A stretch of DNA of 64,000 bases from Dictyostelium discoideum (Eukaryota). Shown one piece after another: positions 21,842 to 52,030 of the stretch. Both the position numbers and the translations under genes were made by a program. The notes beneath the pieces are model-generated. The model ran no database searches, was not told the origin of the DNA, and was given only the letters and a program-made list of their open reading frames with translations. The DNA lies in contig CM000151.3 in NCBI GenBank assembly GCA_000004695.1, positions 5,856,001 through 5,920,000 of the forward strand, written 5' to 3'. How positions within the stretch are numbered: position 1 is the first letter of the stretch; each line of letters opens with the position of its first letter.

Positions 21842-24618
21842 TTAATATCTTGAAATTGAATTTGATCTTGAGGATGATGTTTGTTGTGGTATTATAAATT
21901 GTGGTTGAGTTAATTGACGAGTTAATTGTCTTCGTTGGTCAACTTGTTTTGGAGCACCTGAAGGTAAAACTCTTTTAATATTTTTCTTTTTATGAAATAG
22001 AATAGCGAAATGAATATAAATTGAGCCGATTGCAAATGCAATTATTATAGTGGTAATGATAATCATTGAATCTGCAGTAGGGGAGGTTGAGTCGAATTGA
22101 ATCCATGGAGTTAAATAGGAAAAAGCATATCCACCACCACTTTTACCAGCAATAGTAATATTTATAAACATTATTTGATTCAATAGATGTTTGTCTGCGG
22201 TGGGTGGTAGTGTACATGCGATTGCATTTGAAGATATGAATTTACTATCAATACATTGAACAGGACCAATATGAATATTATCGATTATATCATAAAAACA
22301 ATCACCAAAAATAACCAATTCACCACCATCTAAATATAAAGAATTTGAAGCCAATGCTATTGGTTGTTGAAATGAAACATAAACTGGTATATTGGTTTTA
22401 TTTTCAAAAGTGAGTGTACAAAATTGATCATAAGGTCCATCTAATTGAACTGGGCAAGAGATGGTTTTATAATCAATTAAATTACATTTAGGGAATGTCT
22501 TATTCCCACATTCGATTGATACTACACCACTTGATGCAAAGAATTTACCATTTACAATTACAGCATCATTTGGACTGTTATTATGAAATCCTTCAGCAAC
22601 ATTTGAAAAGTAAACCGCATTTATAATATAAAATGTATCTGCACTATCACCACATGAATTGATAGTTAAATGACCACTAACATAATTATCATAGGTATAG
22701 AATGTGAATTCAGTATCGGTTATATTGATTGGTGTAATGGTTGAGTTTGAAAATTGAATAATAACTTGCTTATCAAAGTAAGATCCACCAAAATTTGTAC
22801 CAGTACATAAGGTAATATTAGTCTCTGGTGAGTATGTACAATTTGCATAGCTTGGTTGTAGTGATGTAACGGTGCCATTATAAGTTTGATTTCCAATTTC
22901 ATATTGTAGAGATTGAACACCACAGACGCCGGGGAAATTATTGAAAATATAGGTTGAGCTTCCATCATCTTTTAATTCTTTGGAGTTATCATCACCAACA
23001 AAGGTTTCACCATTGATTGTAATTTTTGGGTTTATACTATCCAAACTTTGGAAATAATATTTAAAATGTGTTGCATGAGGAGAGTTTAAAATTGCATCAC
23101 TGGGTGTAACATAAAGTTGTAATGGGATATAATATCCAGCAGTATAACCATATGCCTTAACTTGAACAAGAGTTTCACCTGCATAGTTTCCAGGAATCAC
23201 AAAAATAATAGAAGTTTCATAAGTATTTACTTGATAAGAGGTTACCGAAGATGTTCCTCCGATTACAATTTCTGTTTTATTATCACTACCAAAACAATCA
23301 CCATACAATGTTATGATGTTTGTATTTTGTGTTGATTTTATAATTGAAATTTCATTATAATTAAAGGTAATATTATTTGATGACATGATATTACCCACCA
23401 CAACGCTTAATTGAATTGGTTTTTCATAGCCAGGTTGAAGATCACATAAAATATAGGATGGAGTAGAAGCAGTGACATTCCAACTACTCTCAAAACTTAG
23501 AATAGTATTATGTTGAATACCTGGTGGTGTAGTTAATCTTATACCTTTGATGGTTATTTTTCCACCAATTGCGCCTGGTACAGAGTTTACATTATATAAA
23601 ATGGGTGAAAATATTATTGCTTGATTTACTAGTGTTTGTACATTTGAACCAAATGTTACAGAGAAATATAATATCTCACAATATAAAACTTGACTAACAT
23701 CAAGTTCAATAGAGGTTGATTTAATTTTAACTTTGTCTGTTTGTAATACACCACCAAGATAAACTGATAGTATTGAATTGGTTTTATTACAAAAGTTTGA
23801 ACCATTTATAATAATATTATACCCATCAAATGATAATGTACTGGGTGTAACTGTTGGTGCTATATAATTGAATGATAATGGTTTTGATCCACTTGGCCAT
23901 TTAATTGAATCTTGACCACAACCTGATGGAATATTTATAATCATTTGAGTTGGATCCAAATGAATTGGTGAATTGAAATTTGCTATACCACCACTTGAAA
24001 GTTGAAAATAATTTGAATCATTACCAACTATAAATATAATAAATGAACCAACCAATGTTATTGATGTACCATCTACTGGAATTGAAGGTATTGTTGAGTT
24101 TATAATTGGTGTTGGATAATGTGATGGTTGTAATATTCCTTGACATTTTTCAGTACTACTGCCATCCATATAACATGGCATACCACTTATACCATATAAT
24201 TCATTCATTGGTGGTGTTCCATTATTTGTATATGTACAGCTTTTTATTGTTGCATTATTCGTACATTGAAAACTCATTTCAGTTATATTACCATCTGCTT
24301 TTGTTATTTCCCATTTTGTATAATAATTTGGATCATTTAAATCCCAATCAAATGTAATTGAATTTTCTGTATTTCTAAATCCTAAAAATAAAAAAAAAAT
24401 TTTAAAAAAAAATTAAAAAAATATAACATTTAATTAATAAATTGTTTTTATTTATTTATTTTTTTTTTTAATGTTATTATCAAAAAAAAAAAAAAAAAAA
24501 AGTCTAAAAAAAAGTCTAAAAAAAAAAACAATTAAAATTTACCTTTTGGAAAAAATGTTTGACAAAATATTGGCACAATAGTAAAAACTATTAAAAAAAA
24601 TGAAAATTTTAAATTCAT
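21842..24618 (-). CDS. Type I membrane glycoprotein with repeated IPT/TIG-like beta-sandwich modules (Tgr/tiger-family-like); exons at c(24543..24618) and c(21842..24381)
   Basis: Exon 1 (MNLKFSFFLIVFTIVPIFCQTFFPK) is a signal peptide, ending at a GTAAAT donor in phase 1. Exon 2 continues in frame (G FRNTENSITFDWDLNDPNYY...) for about 845 codons, with many N-glycosylation sequons and Cys pairs. The C-terminal TM is IITTIIIAFAIGSIYIHFAILF, followed by a basic cytoplasmic tail. Confidence 0.55.
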
Positions 24619-25475: not shown

Positions 25476-26177
25476 TTATTTTTTTTTATAAAAAAAGAAT
25501 CCCATTGTTATTTTATTGTATTTAGAACATGGTTGTCTTGAAGTTTGGTCATCTCCATCTGAGTAATAAATCCTATTTCCATTTAGTTGGCAACCACCAT
25601 TAGAATGATATTTATATTTCGTTTGTTTGAGTTCACCAACAAGTCCTATAATAAGTTTACCATCATACCTTTTTAATCCAACCAACTGATCATTGGTGTT
25701 ACTAGGAGTCAATATTTCTCTATAAAATATTTTCACATATGTTTCATAACCTTGATTATAATATTCTGAAAGATCACCCATTAAAGTAACCCAATCTCTT
25801 TCACAATTTACATACAGTTCATGTAAAACACGTCTGATTTGATCATAATCATTGAATCGATTGATAATATTACATGATTTATTTGTAGGGTGTATAACAT
25901 TGTTGTTCGTCTCCCTTAACTTTTGTTCTAAATTAATATAAGCATCAGTATCAACATCAGAAGGTTCCTCTTGGTTATTACTCTTATTGTTGTTTTTATT
26001 TTGTTCATTTAAATAATATTTATCATATAAATCCTTAATATTTGGAATTTCCATTTTCTTTTCATTATAAAAAACCTTAATTAAAGAAAATGTCAATATG
26101 GCTTGATTTTCATATATGTTATATTGAGATGGATGGTGACTCGACATAACCAAAACCTTATTTTTTTCGAAACACAT
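25476..26177 (-). CDS. Hypothetical protein (233-aa ORF); intact member of a tandemly duplicated unit, with uncertain 5' structure
   Basis: The ORF is non-repetitive with ordinary coding composition (..RRVLHELYVNCERDWVTLMGDLSEYYNQGYETYVKIFYREIL..GLKRYDGKLIIGLVGELKQTKYKYHSNGGCQLNGNRIYYSDGDDQ..). A degenerate, frameshifted copy of its 3' half lies at 27760-27925. Confidence 0.45.
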   Translation of the reverse strand: MCFEKNKVLVMSSHHPSQYNIYENQAILTFSLIKVFYNEKKMEIPNIKDLYDKYYLNEQNKNNNKSNNQEEPSDVDTDAYINLEQKLRETNNNVIHPTNKSCNIINRFNDYDQIRRVLHELYVNCERDWVTLMGDLSEYYNQGYETYVKIFYREILTPSNTNDQLVGLKRYDGKLIIGLVGELKQTKYKYHSNGGCQLNGNRIYYSDGDDQTSRQPCSKYNKITMGFFFYKKK

Positions 26178-27759: not shown

Positions 27760-28010
27760 AAGTTTTTGGTCAACTTCATCTGAGAAATAATACTTAATTC
27801 CATTTAGTTTGGAACCACCATTAGAATGAATTTTTTTGACTTCACTTGAAAAAAGTCCTTTAATAAGTATACCATCATACCTTGTTAATCCAACCAACTG
27901 ATCATTGGTGTTTCTACATTGTATTTATTTTTAAAATCTTTTGAATTGATTCTTTCTTGTACATTTAATTTTATTTCTACATGATCTTTGATTTTTCCTG
28001 CCATTTATAA
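27760..28010 (-). pseudogene. Degenerate, internally deleted and frameshifted copy of the 25476-26177 gene (its 5' short-ORF segment fused to the 3' gene segment)
   Basis: The B-copy reading MAGKIKDHVEIKLNVQERINSKDFKNKYNVE runs directly into TPMISWLD*, the frameshifted homolog of ..NTNDQLVGLKRYDG.. in copy A. Confidence 0.6.
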
Positions 28011-28721
28011 TACTATATAGTTTTTTTATGATTGAAAAAATTTAATCAGAAAAAATTGCAAAAAAAAAGTTTTTTAAAAATGAACAAAAAAAAAATTAAA
28101 TTTAAATCTTATTTTTTATTCTTAAGAATTTACAAAAACATTGAAAAGTTTCGTAACAACTCAACCAATTTAAAATATATTCGGTAATCAATCTCAAGTC
28201 ATTGCAAAAAAAAAAATATAATGCTTTGTATGACTAATGAATATTATTTTAATATTTAAAGATATAAAAAAAAAAAAAAAAAAATTTTAAATATTGGATT
28301 AATATTAATATTTATATGTCCTCGATTTACATTGCTTTTTTTTATTTATATCTTTAAATATTAAAAACAAAAAAAAAAAAAAAAATTAAAAAAAAAAAAA
28401 CCCCACTAACACACCCCCTTTGATATTTTCAAAATAAAACTTGAAGAAAAAAATTAAATTAAAAAATTGTTTTTAGATATTTATTCTCAACTATTCATTT
28501 ATTTTTATTTAATTTTATTTTTAATTTTTATTTTTATTATTTTTTTTTTTTTTTTTTTTTTTTTTAATTGAAATCCCTTTTGAATTAATTTTTTCTAATT
28601 TTTTTTTTTTTTTATTATTATTTTTTTTTTATTCTAATTTCATCTATCTATATATATGGTAATAAATTAAAAAAAAAAAAAAAATTATTCCAGTTTTTTT
28701 AAAGATTTTCCATCTTCAAAA

Positions 28722-29495
28722 ATGAATTATTTATTTAATATTTTTGAAGAAGAGAAACCAATTAAAAAAGCCCCCATTATAACAGAGGAATGTTATAGAA
28801 ATGGATACCATCCGAGTAAATGGGAATTAGCACAAGTATTATTGAATGGTATTTGGAAACCTTATAAATTCAAAAGTTATATGCAATATAAATCAAGAGA
28901 ACGTTTAAATTTACAAGCAGATACCCAATGTCCAGATGCAATACTATTGGATGACCAAACCAACCAAGAGGTATCATTATATGATTTATTTAATAGTAAT
29001 AATAATGAAAAATCAGTGCAAGATAGACCAATGGTATTAATTTGTGGTAGTTTCACCTGACCCCCATTCCGCGACAAGATGTGTATGTTTCAAGACATCT
29101 TTGTCGATTTTAAAGAGTGGGTTGATATTTATATTGTTTATTTGAAAGAGATACATCCAGCTGATGAATGGTATATTGGTGGTGATGAAATTAGTCTATG
29201 TTATCGTCAACCTAAAACAATGGAAGATAGAAGGGAAATAATCAAAGATTTGAAAGAGTATGCTCCATTTTGTACAATTCCATTCTTAATTGATAAAATG
29301 GATAATAATTTCAATAAAGTTTATGACGCAGTTCCAGAAAGGTTATATGTTTTAGAAGATAAAAAATTCAAATATGTTGGTGGTCCTGGCCCATTTGGTT
29401 TCATACCTGAAGAATTACGTGAATTTTTAACAAAACGTTATAAACCACATTTATTAGATCTTAAAAATAATTTATCAATACCACCATCCCAATAA
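28722..29495 (+). CDS. dio3: Iodothyronine deiodinase-like selenoprotein; the in-frame TGA at 29058-29060 encodes selenocysteine and joins track ORFs 28722..29060 and 29079..29495
   Basis: Reading through the TGA gives ..DRPMVLICGSFT-U-PPFRDKMCMFQDIFVDFKEWVDIYIVYLKEIHPADEWYI.., which aligns with the deiodinase active site (RPLVLNFGSCT-U-PPF...DFL.IYIEEAH..DGW). Further down, ..PERLYVLEDKKFKYVGGPGPFGF.PEE matches the conserved PERLY(I/V) block. Dictyostelium is known to encode a deiodinase-like selenoprotein. Confidence 0.8.
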
Positions 29496-29509
29496 GTTAA
29501 AAATTTATA

Positions 29510-29549
<40 letters not shown>

Positions 29550-29556
<7 letters not shown>

Positions 29557-29625
29557 TAATGATTGCTTTATTATATAAAATTATCTATAATTAAATTATA
29601 GAATATAATTTAGATGAAAACTCTA
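29550..29625 (+). promoter_or_regulatory. Candidate SECIS element in the deiodinase 3' UTR
   Basis: It lies about 60 nt after the stop, following a poly(A) tract. An ATGA quartet (29559-29562) ... 7-bp helix (ATTATAT/ATATAAT) ... A-rich apical region ... TAGATGA (GA at 29613-29614) is compatible with an AUGA_AA_GA SECIS. The AT-rich context makes a chance fit possible. Confidence 0.4.
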
Positions 29626-29783
29626 TTTTTTTTTTTTGATATTTTTCAACTTTTTTTTCACTTTTTTTAATAAATAAATAAAATAATTTACCCAAACAAA
29701 CTTTTTTTTTTTAAAATTTTTTTTTTTTTTATTTTTTTTTTTATTTTTTTTTTTTTTATTATTATTATTATGGTTTTTTTAAT

Positions 29784-30805
29784 TTATTTTGATTTAACAA
29801 TTTTCTTTGTAACAGTTTTAGTTGTAGTTGTTGGTGTTGGTGTAGTTTTAGTAGTTTTAATTTCAGTTTGTTTTGGTTCGAGAGCAGATTTAACGGCCTA
29901 AATAAAAAAATAAAAAAAAGTGGGAAATAAAAAAAAAGTGGGAAATATATTAATAATTAATAATTAATTTAATAAAAATAAAAAAAACATACATCTAAAT
30001 AACCAGTAAATTTATAATCAATTTCAAATTCTTTTAATTTTTCTTTTAATATAATTTCTCTATTAATACGTTCATTTAAGAGTTTAATGATAGATTCTGT
30101 TGGTAATTGATTGTATGTATCTTTTTCTTCCTTAATACGTTTTGATGCATTATGTAAAGAATCCATATGAATGTTTGTTGCGGAAAGAAGTAATTCTCTT
30201 GGACAAAATGAACTTTGATGTGGTACCCAACCATCCATAATTGAAATATCTAATTTCTTTCCAAACATAATATAACCATTCATTGCTTCTTTAGCAATCT
30301 TTGCAACTTCTGCATCAAAAAATCTAACAAAAGCACATTTTGCAAATTTACCAGATAACGTTCTATCAACTCTAACACATTTAATATCTCCAAATTGTTT
30401 AAAGAATTTATATATTTCAGTTTCATAAAAACCTTTTGGTACTTCTCTAATTAAAATTGTTGATCCTTTAACACCCTAAAATATATATAGTTTAATAATT
30501 ATTTATAATAATAATAATAATAATTAATTATTAATATACATGAAATTATTAGTATTTTTTTATTTTTTTATTTTTTATTTTTTATTTTTTCCAAATTTAG
30601 AATTATTGATATTTACTAAAACGTATTCTTTTGATTTATTTAATTGTTTTTCACCCTTTTCTTTCTTTCCAACTGGTACAACATCATGTGAATTTGAGAA
30701 ACCATCATTTAATGATTTTGGTTCAACTGTTTTTGAAACCTTTTTACTTTCAATTTCATTTGATTTAACAATTGGTTTTTGTGATGCTTTTGATTTTCCG
30801 ACCAT
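29784..30805 (-). CDS. Nucleolar RRM protein of the Nop15/NIFK family; 3 exons at c(30617..30805), c(29993..30475), c(29784..29897)
   Basis: Exon 2 reads GVKGSTILIREVPKGFYETEIYKFFKQFGDIKCVRVDRTLSGKFAKCAFVRFFDAEVAKIAKEAMNGYIMFGKKLDISIM.., which parallels NIFK/Nop15 (..YVGHLPHGFYE.EM..YFSQFGD..RLR.SRN.KTG.SKGYAFVEFES.DVAKIVAETMNNYL.GE..L.C). Exon 1 is the Lys-rich N-terminus (donor GTAAAT, phase 0). Exon 3 is a Thr/Lys-rich tail (donor GTATGT). Confidence 0.6.
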
Positions 30806-30951
30806 TTTCTATTATTAAATTTTAATTTATTTATTTATATATATATATACGTGAGAGATAAAAGATCTAAATAAAAAAAAAAAAAGAAAAGAAAAATAAA
30901 AAAAATTTTGAAAAAAAAAAAAAAAAAAAAAAAAACGAAAAAATCCCTCGG

Positions 30952-30982
<31 letters not shown>

Positions 30983-31167
30983 ATTTTATTTTTATTTTTA
31001 TTTTTATTTTTATTTTTTTTTTTTTTGAATAGATTTTTATTTTTTTTAATACAATTATTAATAATAATATTACTTATTATTATTATTAATATTGTTAATA
31101 ATAATACTAATATTGTTAATATTATTTAATTATTTTTATTTTATTGTTATTATTATAAATCAACAAT

Positions 31168-43851: not shown

Positions 43852-45855
43852 ATGTTGCTTACCCCTCAACAATTCAATGATCCTCGTTATGGATCACCAA
43901 CAGAAAAATATTTGGCTTTATTAGAAAATACCCATATAACTTGTCGTGGAAATATAATTTCAAATCAACAACAACAACAACAACAACAACAAGAGCAACA
44001 ATCAACAGGATCCTCACCAAAATCACAAACAATAAAAAATTCATCAAATAATAAAAATAATAATAATAATACCTCACCAAGAAAAAATAAAAATAAAAAA
44101 TCACCAACAATGAATAGTTTCAATAGTAATAAATTATTTAAAAAATCATTAACATCCTCTTCTGATTCATCCTCTGATGAATATTCAGAGAGTGAAGAAG
44201 AAGAAGAGCAAGTAGAGGAGGATGAAGAAAATAGTGACGAAGGTGATTTAAATGATAAATCTACTAAATTCCTTTCAAATAACCAAAAATCCATTCATGA
44301 ACAAGAGGATTTAGCAGATGATGATTCTTCTGACTTAGATAGTAACCACCACCAAGAGGAAGAAGACTATTCATTAACCTCTGAAGAGGAGGAAATCTTA
44401 TCGGATGATGAATCAACTGATAAATCATCATCATCAGAGGAGGAGGAAGATTCTGAATCCGAGTCAGAATCAGAAGAAGAATCAGGAAATGACTCATCAT
44501 CATCGGTAACAGATGAATCGGATGAAGAAGATCATAATAGAGAATGGTCAAATGTAAATAGTAATCTCAGCTTAAAAAAGAGTGTATCATCAATACTTTT
44601 CAAGTTTACAGATTGTGATTCAACCAGTGATTCAGATGAGGAAATGGATAGTAGCAGTGGCCAAGAAGGTTCATTCTCTGATAAAGACATTGATGTTTTC
44701 GATGACTCATTCCTTCAAGTACCAACATCTTACTCTATCAATATCTCTCCCAGAAAATCATCTGAACAATTAAAACAACAAAGTGGCGACTTTGAAGAGG
44801 TTGATGGAGGTTACCTTGGCCAAAAACCACTCGTTTCCAAAATAAATGAAAACAAATTTAATAATGGTTCTGTGGCTTCATCTGATGATGATGATGATGA
44901 ACTTAACAATGGCAACAACAATAGATACTATGACGATAGTGAAGAAGAGTTAAATAGAGAGATTGTAAAAAGAGAACAAGAGAATGATAAAAAAGTATTG
45001 GTTGCAATTAGAAAATCAATTAATGGTATAAACTCTGGTGATAATGAAAGTATGGTGGAAAAACCATGTTGGTATGGTTTTGAAGATGATAATCATATCA
45101 AGGTTATCTTTCAACATTATTCTTCTTTCTTGCAAATTGATCAAGAGGTTAAACATACATTACGTGGCCCAAAACCTTTCATTGGCAGAGTTCATCGTAG
45201 AGCTATCAAATATGATGGTGGTGAGGTTGGTTGTAAATTCACCACTTTGGACACTGTAAAAGTTTATCGTTGGGAAATTCAACCAATTGGTAGACCCCTA
45301 AATCTTTACAAATCATTTGTATTATTAACACGTTGGGATGAAGAAAATGGCTTACCTACCAAATTTCAAAAGGTAAACTCTCTCTCAAACAAAGACTTTT
45401 GGGCAAATGAAGCAAAATCTTTAAAATCCCAAAGTAAAATCTCCTCTTACTTGTATTGCTCACCAATGTTTGATACTGATTTCACTTTTAATTATTCAAT
45501 TGACTCTGAAAAATATCCAGTTGATTTCTTACCAAATAGTCCAATACTATCAAGTAGAAGACATCATAATCATCATCACCACAGTAATAGTGATGGTGGT
45601 TTTGATCATCAACAACAACAACAACAAAACCATCACTCACCAAAACAATATCTTCATCCTTTAACTAGTTTAAATCGTAACAACAAATTATCAGATTCTC
45701 AATTGTTACCATCAATCAAAACACCAACTTTATCAGTTGGTGGTATAGTACCTCAAAGAAGATCAAGTCATCCTTCTCTTTTATTATCCTCACATATTTA
45801 CTCTCATTCAATCACTTTTGGATTTAAAGATAAATGTAATAATGATTTAAATTAA
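43852..45855 (+). CDS. Acidic Ser/Asp/Glu-rich protein (667 aa) with a conserved C-terminal globular domain
   Basis: A long (SSD/SEEEE)n acidic region is followed by ..KPCWYGFEDDNHIKVIFQHYSSFLQIDQEVKHTLRGPKPFIGRVHRRAIKYDGGEVGCKFTTLDTVKVYRWEIQPIGRPLNLYKSFVLLTRWDEENGLPTKF.. The overlapping upstream ORF 43625..43924 is in a different frame and was not joined. Confidence 0.55.
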   Translation: MLLTPQQFNDPRYGSPTEKYLALLENTHITCRGNIISNQQQQQQQQQEQQSTGSSPKSQTIKNSSNNKNNNNNTSPRKNKNKKSPTMNSFNSNKLFKKSLTSSSDSSSDEYSESEEEEEQVEEDEENSDEGDLNDKSTKFLSNNQKSIHEQEDLADDDSSDLDSNHHQEEEDYSLTSEEEEILSDDESTDKSSSSEEEEDSESESESEEESGNDSSSSVTDESDEEDHNREWSNVNSNLSLKKSVSSILFKFTDCDSTSDSDEEMDSSSGQEGSFSDKDIDVFDDSFLQVPTSYSINISPRKSSEQLKQQSGDFEEVDGGYLGQKPLVSKINENKFNNGSVASSDDDDDELNNGNNNRYYDDSEEELNREIVKREQENDKKVLVAIRKSINGINSGDNESMVEKPCWYGFEDDNHIKVIFQHYSSFLQIDQEVKHTLRGPKPFIGRVHRRAIKYDGGEVGCKFTTLDTVKVYRWEIQPIGRPLNLYKSFVLLTRWDEENGLPTKFQKVNSLSNKDFWANEAKSLKSQSKISSYLYCSPMFDTDFTFNYSIDSEKYPVDFLPNSPILSSRRHHNHHHHSNSDGGFDHQQQQQQNHHSPKQYLHPLTSLNRNNKLSDSQLLPSIKTPTLSVGGIVPQRRSSHPSLLLSSHIYSHSITFGFKDKCNNDLN

Positions 45856-51936: not shown

Positions 51937-51958
51937 ATTTAAATTTTATTATAAAAAT

Positions 51959-52030
51959 GGTTCTACTGAGACTCGAACTCAGATTACAGGATTCAAAGTC
52001 CTGGGTGCTAACCAATTACACTATAAAACC
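51959..52030 (-). tRNA. tRNA-Gln(UUG): tRNA-Gln (anticodon UUG), 72 nt
   Basis: The minus strand reads GGTTTTATAGTGTAATTGGTTAGCACCCAGGACTTTGAATCCTGTAATCTGAGTTCGAGTCTCAGTAGAACC. It folds as a 7-bp acceptor stem, D arm, anticodon stem CCAGG/CCTGG with loop CTTTGAA (anticodon TTG), and a T arm (TGAGT TCGAGTC TCAGT) with an internal B box GGTTCGAGTCTC-like. Confidence 0.85.

Follow-up and report, generated by a model that had tools for sequence, protein, structure and literature searches.

An in-frame UGA codon and a type II SECIS element in the deiodinase-like selenoprotein gene of Dictyostelium discoideum

We analyzed a stretch of 64,000 nucleotides of the Dictyostelium discoideum genome (hereafter the window; positions 5,856,001–5,920,000 of contig CM000151.3, assembly GCA_000004695.1). 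The locus described here consists of two adjacent open reading frames on the forward strand. The first (28722–29060, 112 aa) terminates at a TGA codon, and the second (29079–29495, 138 aa) is in the same frame. Translation through the TGA gives a frame of 257 codons with one internal stop, which ends at a TAA codon (29493–29495). A first-pass annotation of the window had described two same-frame ORFs parted by a single TGA, and the coordinates and translation agree with this description. It had also proposed that read-through recreates a deiodinase active-site motif with conserved flanking blocks, all of which are present in the product: DRPMVLICGSFT directly before the TGA and PPFRDK directly after it, together with IYIVYLKEIHPADEW and PERLYV. 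A search for records identical to the complete read-through product, with either X or C at residue 113, found none. The features of the locus are collected in Table 1.

Table 1. Features of the deiodinase-like selenoprotein locus (positions in the window)
Feature	Position	Strand	Evidence and remarks
Complete CDS, deiodinase-like selenoprotein, intron-less	28722–29495	+	257 aa, Sec at residue 113; read-through translation, Pfam, PDB matches, orthologue frames, Lobanov 2007 Additional file 2
Sec codon TGA (Sec113), motif GSFT-U-PPF	29058–29060	+	Aligns to DIO3/DIO2 catalytic position; kept in 5/5 species
84-nt GT...AG segment, false "intron", coding, holds the active site	29034–29117	+	GC, codon-position differences, omissions in P0001/P0010
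39-nt A-run between stop codon and SECIS	29515–29553	+	Sequence; possible 5' strand of helix 1 opposite T-run 29626–29637
Type II SECIS	29555–29621	+	Five-species alignment, compensatory pairs, covariance model, published description
SECIS prefix UGUA	29555–29558	+	Invariant in five species
SECIS helix 1 start	29556–29557 with 29620–29621	+	
SECIS core	A29559, then UGAU 29560–29563 opposite UGAA 29615–29618	+	Invariant in five species
SECIS helix 2	29564–29576 with 29603–29614	+	Bulged G29565; U.U mismatches 29568/29611 and 29569/29610
SECIS unpaired AAAAUUA	29577–29583	+	AAAA at 29577–29580; AAA invariant
SECIS mini-stem	29584–29591 with 29595–29602, loop UAA 29592–29594	+	8 bp; 6–8 bp in the other species

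Protein searches were run with a cysteine in place of the internal stop. The product matches the Pfam family T4_deiodinase (PF00837) above chance (E = 4.7e-36), scoring 124.7 bits where the cut-off is 27, and the match covers residues 82–238 on profile positions 82–235 of 237. Neither ORF half alone constitutes a complete deiodinase domain. Matches in the PDB include the catalytic domain of mouse DIO3 (4tr3, E = 8.7e-25) and DIO2 (9h48, E = 9.5e-24). Each of these two alignments pairs the TGA with the catalytic residue (Sec or Cys) of the GS-x-T-C/U-PPF motif, and a published alignment with vertebrate enzymes also places the TGA on the catalytic position. The central proposal of the first-pass annotation, recoding of an in-frame UGA in a deiodinase-like gene, is thus supported. 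Judged by its sequence and active site, the predicted protein is a member of the deiodinase family.

The locus is almost certainly the already published D. discoideum deiodinase-like selenoprotein gene (DI, or dio3), which consists of a single exon. Additional file 2 of Lobanov et al. (2007, Genome Biol 8:R198) contains the same protein, beginning with MNYLFNIF and including DRPMVLICGSFT-U-PPFRDKMCMFQDIFVDFKEWVDIYIVYLKEIHPAD, with AC115598.2 as its source. Minor mismatches to the text of this supplement (an extra E, and T for I) look like OCR noise, and we find no difference of substance between the published gene and the locus. In the alignment of Lobanov et al. (2007), the TGA position is given as U and stands opposite the U of the zebrafish, chicken and human deiodinases. 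The same study reported tRNA-Sec and SPS2 in D. discoideum, as well as a 75Se-labelled band whose size fits DI and which was assigned by size only. The gene is therefore not new: the gene itself, its Sec codon, its SECIS and the 75Se labelling have been in the literature since 2007. Selenium incorporation at DI rests on this published labelling; the present analysis shows the reading frame and its homology, where the UGA falls, the conservation of UGA and frame in five species and a conserved, covarying SECIS-shaped structure.

A first homologue search gave two matches, and orthologues were recovered through exact-cluster look-ups. The resulting set comprises five species, four of which are closely related: D. 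discoideum, D. purpureum (L001, 124–894), D. firmibasis (L002, 2001–2774), D. citrinum (L003, 1638–2411) and D. dimigraforme (L004, 1641–2411). The locus of a wild strain of D. discoideum (L006, 2001–2774) was also recovered. In all five species the frame is unbroken and 256–257 codons long, and its one TGA occupies the equivalent position. The TGA itself is invariant, and the codons adjacent to it vary synonymously. Between the TGA and the ATG that follows it lie six codons, encoding PPFRDK, and these show synonymous differences only (CGC, CGT or AGA for Arg; CCC or CCT for Pro). The third-position bias persists past the TGA: between D. discoideum and D. purpureum, the next 130 codons contain 24, 15 and 57 differing sites at the first, second and third codon positions, respectively.

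Automated annotation has treated the TGA as a terminator, and the gene is deposited as two hypothetical proteins in D. discoideum wild strains, D. cf. discoideum, D. citrinum and D. dimigraforme (e.g. KAM9945749.1 with KAM9945750.1, and KAN0035251.1 with KAN0035252.1). These records would fit a genuine stop codon, with the locus representing either two small genes or a pseudogene created by a nonsense mutation. We consider this extremely improbable. The position of the TGA is the same in all five species, and the sequence on either side of it is under purifying selection. Neither half is a full deiodinase domain, a conserved SECIS follows the frame, and the 75Se-labelled band reported in 2007 has the size of the full-length protein. 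The PPFRDK codons would be non-coding if the TGA terminated translation, yet they have changed only synonymously, which argues against a genuine stop.

A second type of deposited model retains a single protein and loses the active site through a false in-frame intron. In the D. purpureum model DICPUDRAFT_43625 (P0001, 228 aa), 28 residues are missing (VLICGSFT-U-PPFRDK...DFKE). The D. firmibasis model KAK5577524.1 (P0010, 230 aa) lacks almost the same stretch, and the TGA is thus spliced out of both. An equivalent splice can be drawn in D. discoideum, where an 84-nt segment has GT at its 5' end, AG at its 3' end and a length divisible by three; its removal would leave a mature mRNA for a protein of ~229 aa lacking selenocysteine. 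Despite the two models that use such a splice, we assign this explanation a negligible probability. The segment has a GC content of 0.39, the highest of the locus, compared to 0.08–0.13 in flanking non-coding DNA. D. discoideum and D. purpureum share 85% identity over this stretch, and their differences number 2, 2 and 9 at the first, second and third codon positions, respectively. The segment also encodes the catalytic GSFT-U-PPF, so that its removal would leave a Pfam domain without an active site, and the model published in 2007 retains it. The segment is thus coding sequence rather than an intron. Split pairs and false-intron models in GenBank together confirm the earlier remark that annotation pipelines split or truncate genes of this kind.

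The first-pass annotation had placed a candidate SECIS about 60 nt after the true stop, and a type II element is indeed found there. The ATGA at 29559 begins 63 nt past the stop codon, and is followed by the four unpaired adenines and by the GA of the opposite core strand at 29616–29617. The distance from the UGA to the SECIS, 501 nt, exceeds the published functional minimum, which lies between 51 and 111 nt. The core, UGAU/UGAA, fits the kink-turn consensus UGAN/KGAW, with its tandem G.A/A.G pairs (PMC3753652). The bare motif carries no weight: the pattern ATGA-N11-15-AAA-N20-40-TGAA occurs 31 times in the window versus 41.6 expected, not above chance, and the octamer TGTAATGA occurs 6 times versus 5.6 expected, not rarer than chance. 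Since the bare motif is uninformative in AT-rich DNA, the orthologous loci were compared.

An element led by TGTAATGA is present 42–70 nt past the stop codon in each of the four other species, while the remaining 3' UTR varies in both length and sequence. Alignment of the five elements gives a mean column identity of 83%. The proposed pairs are standard in 88% of the alignment cells, compared to 31–56% when the 3' partners are slid by one to three columns; helix 2 is 86.7% paired. Three pairs show compensatory double changes across the five SECIS sequences, which are mostly from closely related species. One is in helix 2 (U-A to C-G in D. firmibasis) and two are in the mini-stem (A-U to U-A, and A-U to U-A or C-G). 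Additionally, the two U.U mismatches of helix 2 are replaced by U-A and A-U pairs in D. purpureum, which fixes the register. With five sequences, the covariation gives moderate support for the predicted helix 2. A covariance model built from the alignment scores 75–93 bits on its own five training elements. The next best match in the window reaches 19.9 bits (E = 0.48), and we thus find no second element of this kind in the window.

Folding of single sequences gives weak z-scores (−1.3 to −1.9), as expected at ~11% GC. The minimum free energy structure reproduces only the upper part of helix 2 and the mini-stem, because the non-canonical pairs of the core are not modelled. A small conserved hairpin, in which UGUAAUGA pairs with UUAUUAUA, is predicted at 29555–29575 by both RNAalifold and the centroid fold. 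It would sequester the AUGA core and compete with the SECIS fold. RNAalifold, run on the five-species alignment, prefers this hairpin (alignment columns 11–18 with 24–31) to the full SECIS. We considered it as an alternative and rejected it, since only the SECIS accounts for both members of the U-A pair having changed to C-G in D. firmibasis.

The first-pass annotation had held that the absence of any SECIS-like structure scoring above threshold would speak against its reading, and for Rfam this formally applies. SECISearch detected the DI SECIS in the 2007 study (Lobanov et al., 2007). In contrast, the SECIS families of Rfam 15 gave no match at E ≤ 10, either in 28000–31000 or in the 205-nt UTR alone, where only chance matches to unrelated families were found. 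As SECISearch did find the element, the Rfam result reflects the limited sensitivity of generic models on a lineage-specific element of ~11% GC.

The element at 29555–29621 agrees with the published description in every respect. According to Lobanov et al. [quoted passage not shown] All of these, including the type, are matched here. The UGUA prefix was also reported for the SECIS elements of the organism's other four selenoproteins (Lobanov et al., 2007). The dictyostelid element shares with canonical type II SECIS elements its location in the 3' UTR, the UGAN/KGAW kink-turn core, the unpaired adenines, helix 2 and the extra apical helix. It differs from them in its low GC content (~11%), the UGUA prefix, the 8-bp mini-stem, the two internal U.U mismatches and its lack of a match in Rfam. 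The SECIS is thus supported by its position, its fold, its cross-species conservation with compensatory changes and its published description, and not by the bare motif.

If the Rfam result is given more weight, the hairpin could be regarded as an unrelated conserved UTR element, with the UGA being read by a near-cognate tRNA (Trp, Cys or Arg). There is very little to recommend this explanation, and we hold it to be exceedingly unlikely. All sequence features that mark a SECIS are present in the hairpin and correctly arranged (UGAU/UGAA, the unpaired AAA and a type II mini-stem), and the Dictyostelium-specific UGUA precedes them. The vertebrate enzymes have Sec at the homologous position, and the organism possesses tRNA-Sec and SPS2 and yields a 75Se-labelled band of matching size (Lobanov et al., 2007).

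Decoding of the UGA as selenocysteine is therefore the reading we retain. In the mechanism that we propose, a single mRNA would bear the whole 257-codon frame, and UGA codon 113 would be decoded as selenocysteine by means of the type II SECIS in the 3' UTR. This element would recruit the Sec-insertion machinery, namely an SBP2-type SECIS-binding protein, a Sec-specific elongation factor and tRNA-Sec. The product would be a thioredoxin-fold enzyme with Sec in the GS-x-T-U-PPF motif. As for its substrate and chemistry, we infer a reaction that is presumably a reductive dehalogenation.

The A-run that separates the stop codon from the SECIS pairs with the T-run 29626–29637 in the minimum free energy fold. 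D. firmibasis, D. citrinum and D. dimigraforme have comparable A-rich runs, whereas D. purpureum has none. Such a run would cause internal oligo-dT priming and assembly breaks, and cDNA or EST evidence may consequently end before the SECIS. A 930-nt Logan contig (L005), considered as transcript evidence, is identical to 28604–29533 of the window; both of its ends lie in homopolymer runs, and we regard it as uninformative.

Residue roles described for the vertebrate enzymes (PMC11592359) were mapped onto the Dictyostelium protein through the PDB alignments. The protein has in common with DIO1–3 the thioredoxin-fold catalytic core, Sec within GS-x-T-U-PPF and SECIS-dependent insertion of Sec. 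Six of the seven residues of the proton relay and the edge of loop D are retained: Ser110, Thr112, Tyr140, Glu143, His145 and Trp150 correspond to Ser127, Thr129, Tyr157, Glu160, His162 and Trp167 of Dio2, respectively. The exception is the relay histidine (His182 of Dio2; His219 of Dio3, by count from the alignment), which is replaced by Pro164. Two further positions of the vertebrate enzymes are also occupied by proline. Pro205 (in AVPERLYV) is found at the position of the gate phenylalanine (Phe258 of Dio3, Phe224 of Dio2), and Pro222 (in GGPGP) at that of the carboxylate clamp (Arg275 of Dio3, Lys241 of Dio2). All three prolines are common to the five Dictyostelium species.

The generic architecture of vertebrate Dio enzymes includes an N-terminal transmembrane helix and a linker (PMC11592359). 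In contrast, no N-terminal transmembrane helix was detected in the Dictyostelium protein, where the best 19-residue Kyte-Doolittle mean is 0.54 within the first 100 residues and 0.81 over the whole protein. The protein thus differs from its vertebrate relatives in lacking both their membrane architecture and part of the thyronine site. These differences agree with a remark by Lobanov et al. (2007) that amoebae are not known to possess thyroid hormones. Because there is no membrane anchor and the relay, gate and clamp positions are prolines, another substrate is possible. We raise tentatively, as a suggestion from sequence that we consider rather doubtful, that the amoebal enzyme may be soluble and something other than a thyronine deiodinase, with its Sec perhaps used on a different substrate. 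Such a substrate may be, for example, an endogenous halogenated phenolic compound; alternatively, the enzyme may catalyze a peroxiredoxin-like redox reaction. Dictyostelium makes chlorinated polyketide signals such as DIF-1. If the natural substrate were indeed not a thyronine, the protein would offer a view onto the ancestral, pre-thyroid function of the deiodinase fold. A phenotype of the dio3 knockout was reportedly described by Singh and colleagues in 2014. A later article cites dio3 as a determinant or regulator of aggregate size (PMC6592521, citing Singh et al. 2014 Dev Biol 396:256).

The region that precedes the catalytic core contains an Asn-rich linker (28995–29012, residues ~91–97), and the length of the N-terminal half varies between 112, 113 and 114 aa among D. 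discoideum strains. The linker reads, for example, NNSNNNNEK in the deposited protein P0006 and NSNNNEK in the window, and the sister species have other sequence there. From these comparisons, residues ~91–97 appear to be an indel-prone stretch of low complexity.

The only news from this locus concerns the databases: recent automated annotations still split dio3 or splice out its active site, and these records can be corrected. The failure of Rfam to recognize the dictyostelid SECIS implies that lineage-specific models are required when very AT-rich genomes are screened for selenoproteins. The locus also serves as a clean positive control, in which UGA recoding is recognizable from the raw sequence.

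Several other features of the window were noted. A multi-exon gene encoding an RRM-domain protein (~29790–31000, reverse strand) is convergent with dio3 and ends ~170 nt beyond the SECIS, so that the two 3' UTRs share a very short, extremely AT-rich intergenic space; this arrangement is kept in the four other species. On the other side of dio3, the ORF at 25479–26177 (reverse strand) is an exact match to the AX4 protein DDB_G0275743 (233 aa). DDB_G0275743 belongs to one 90%-identity cluster with proteins of 870–1036 aa from other strains and with an AX4 Ig E-set protein of 871 aa. We considered whether it could be a paralogue of the adjoining TgrO1-like ORF (21845–24277, reverse strand, 811 aa) and rejected this, as the two show no similarity. 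Some annotations probably fuse DDB_G0275743 and the TgrO1-like ORF into one gene, and one of these gene models may thus be wrong. The ORF at 43852–45852 (forward strand) is an exact match to the AX4 protein DDB_G0275737. From these two exact matches, the window represents chromosomal DNA of strain AX4, which we take to belong to chromosome 2. The only RNA gene at the gathering threshold in the 64-kb window, as searched with ARAGORN and Rfam, is a tRNA-Gln with anticodon UUG at 51958–52030 on the reverse strand.
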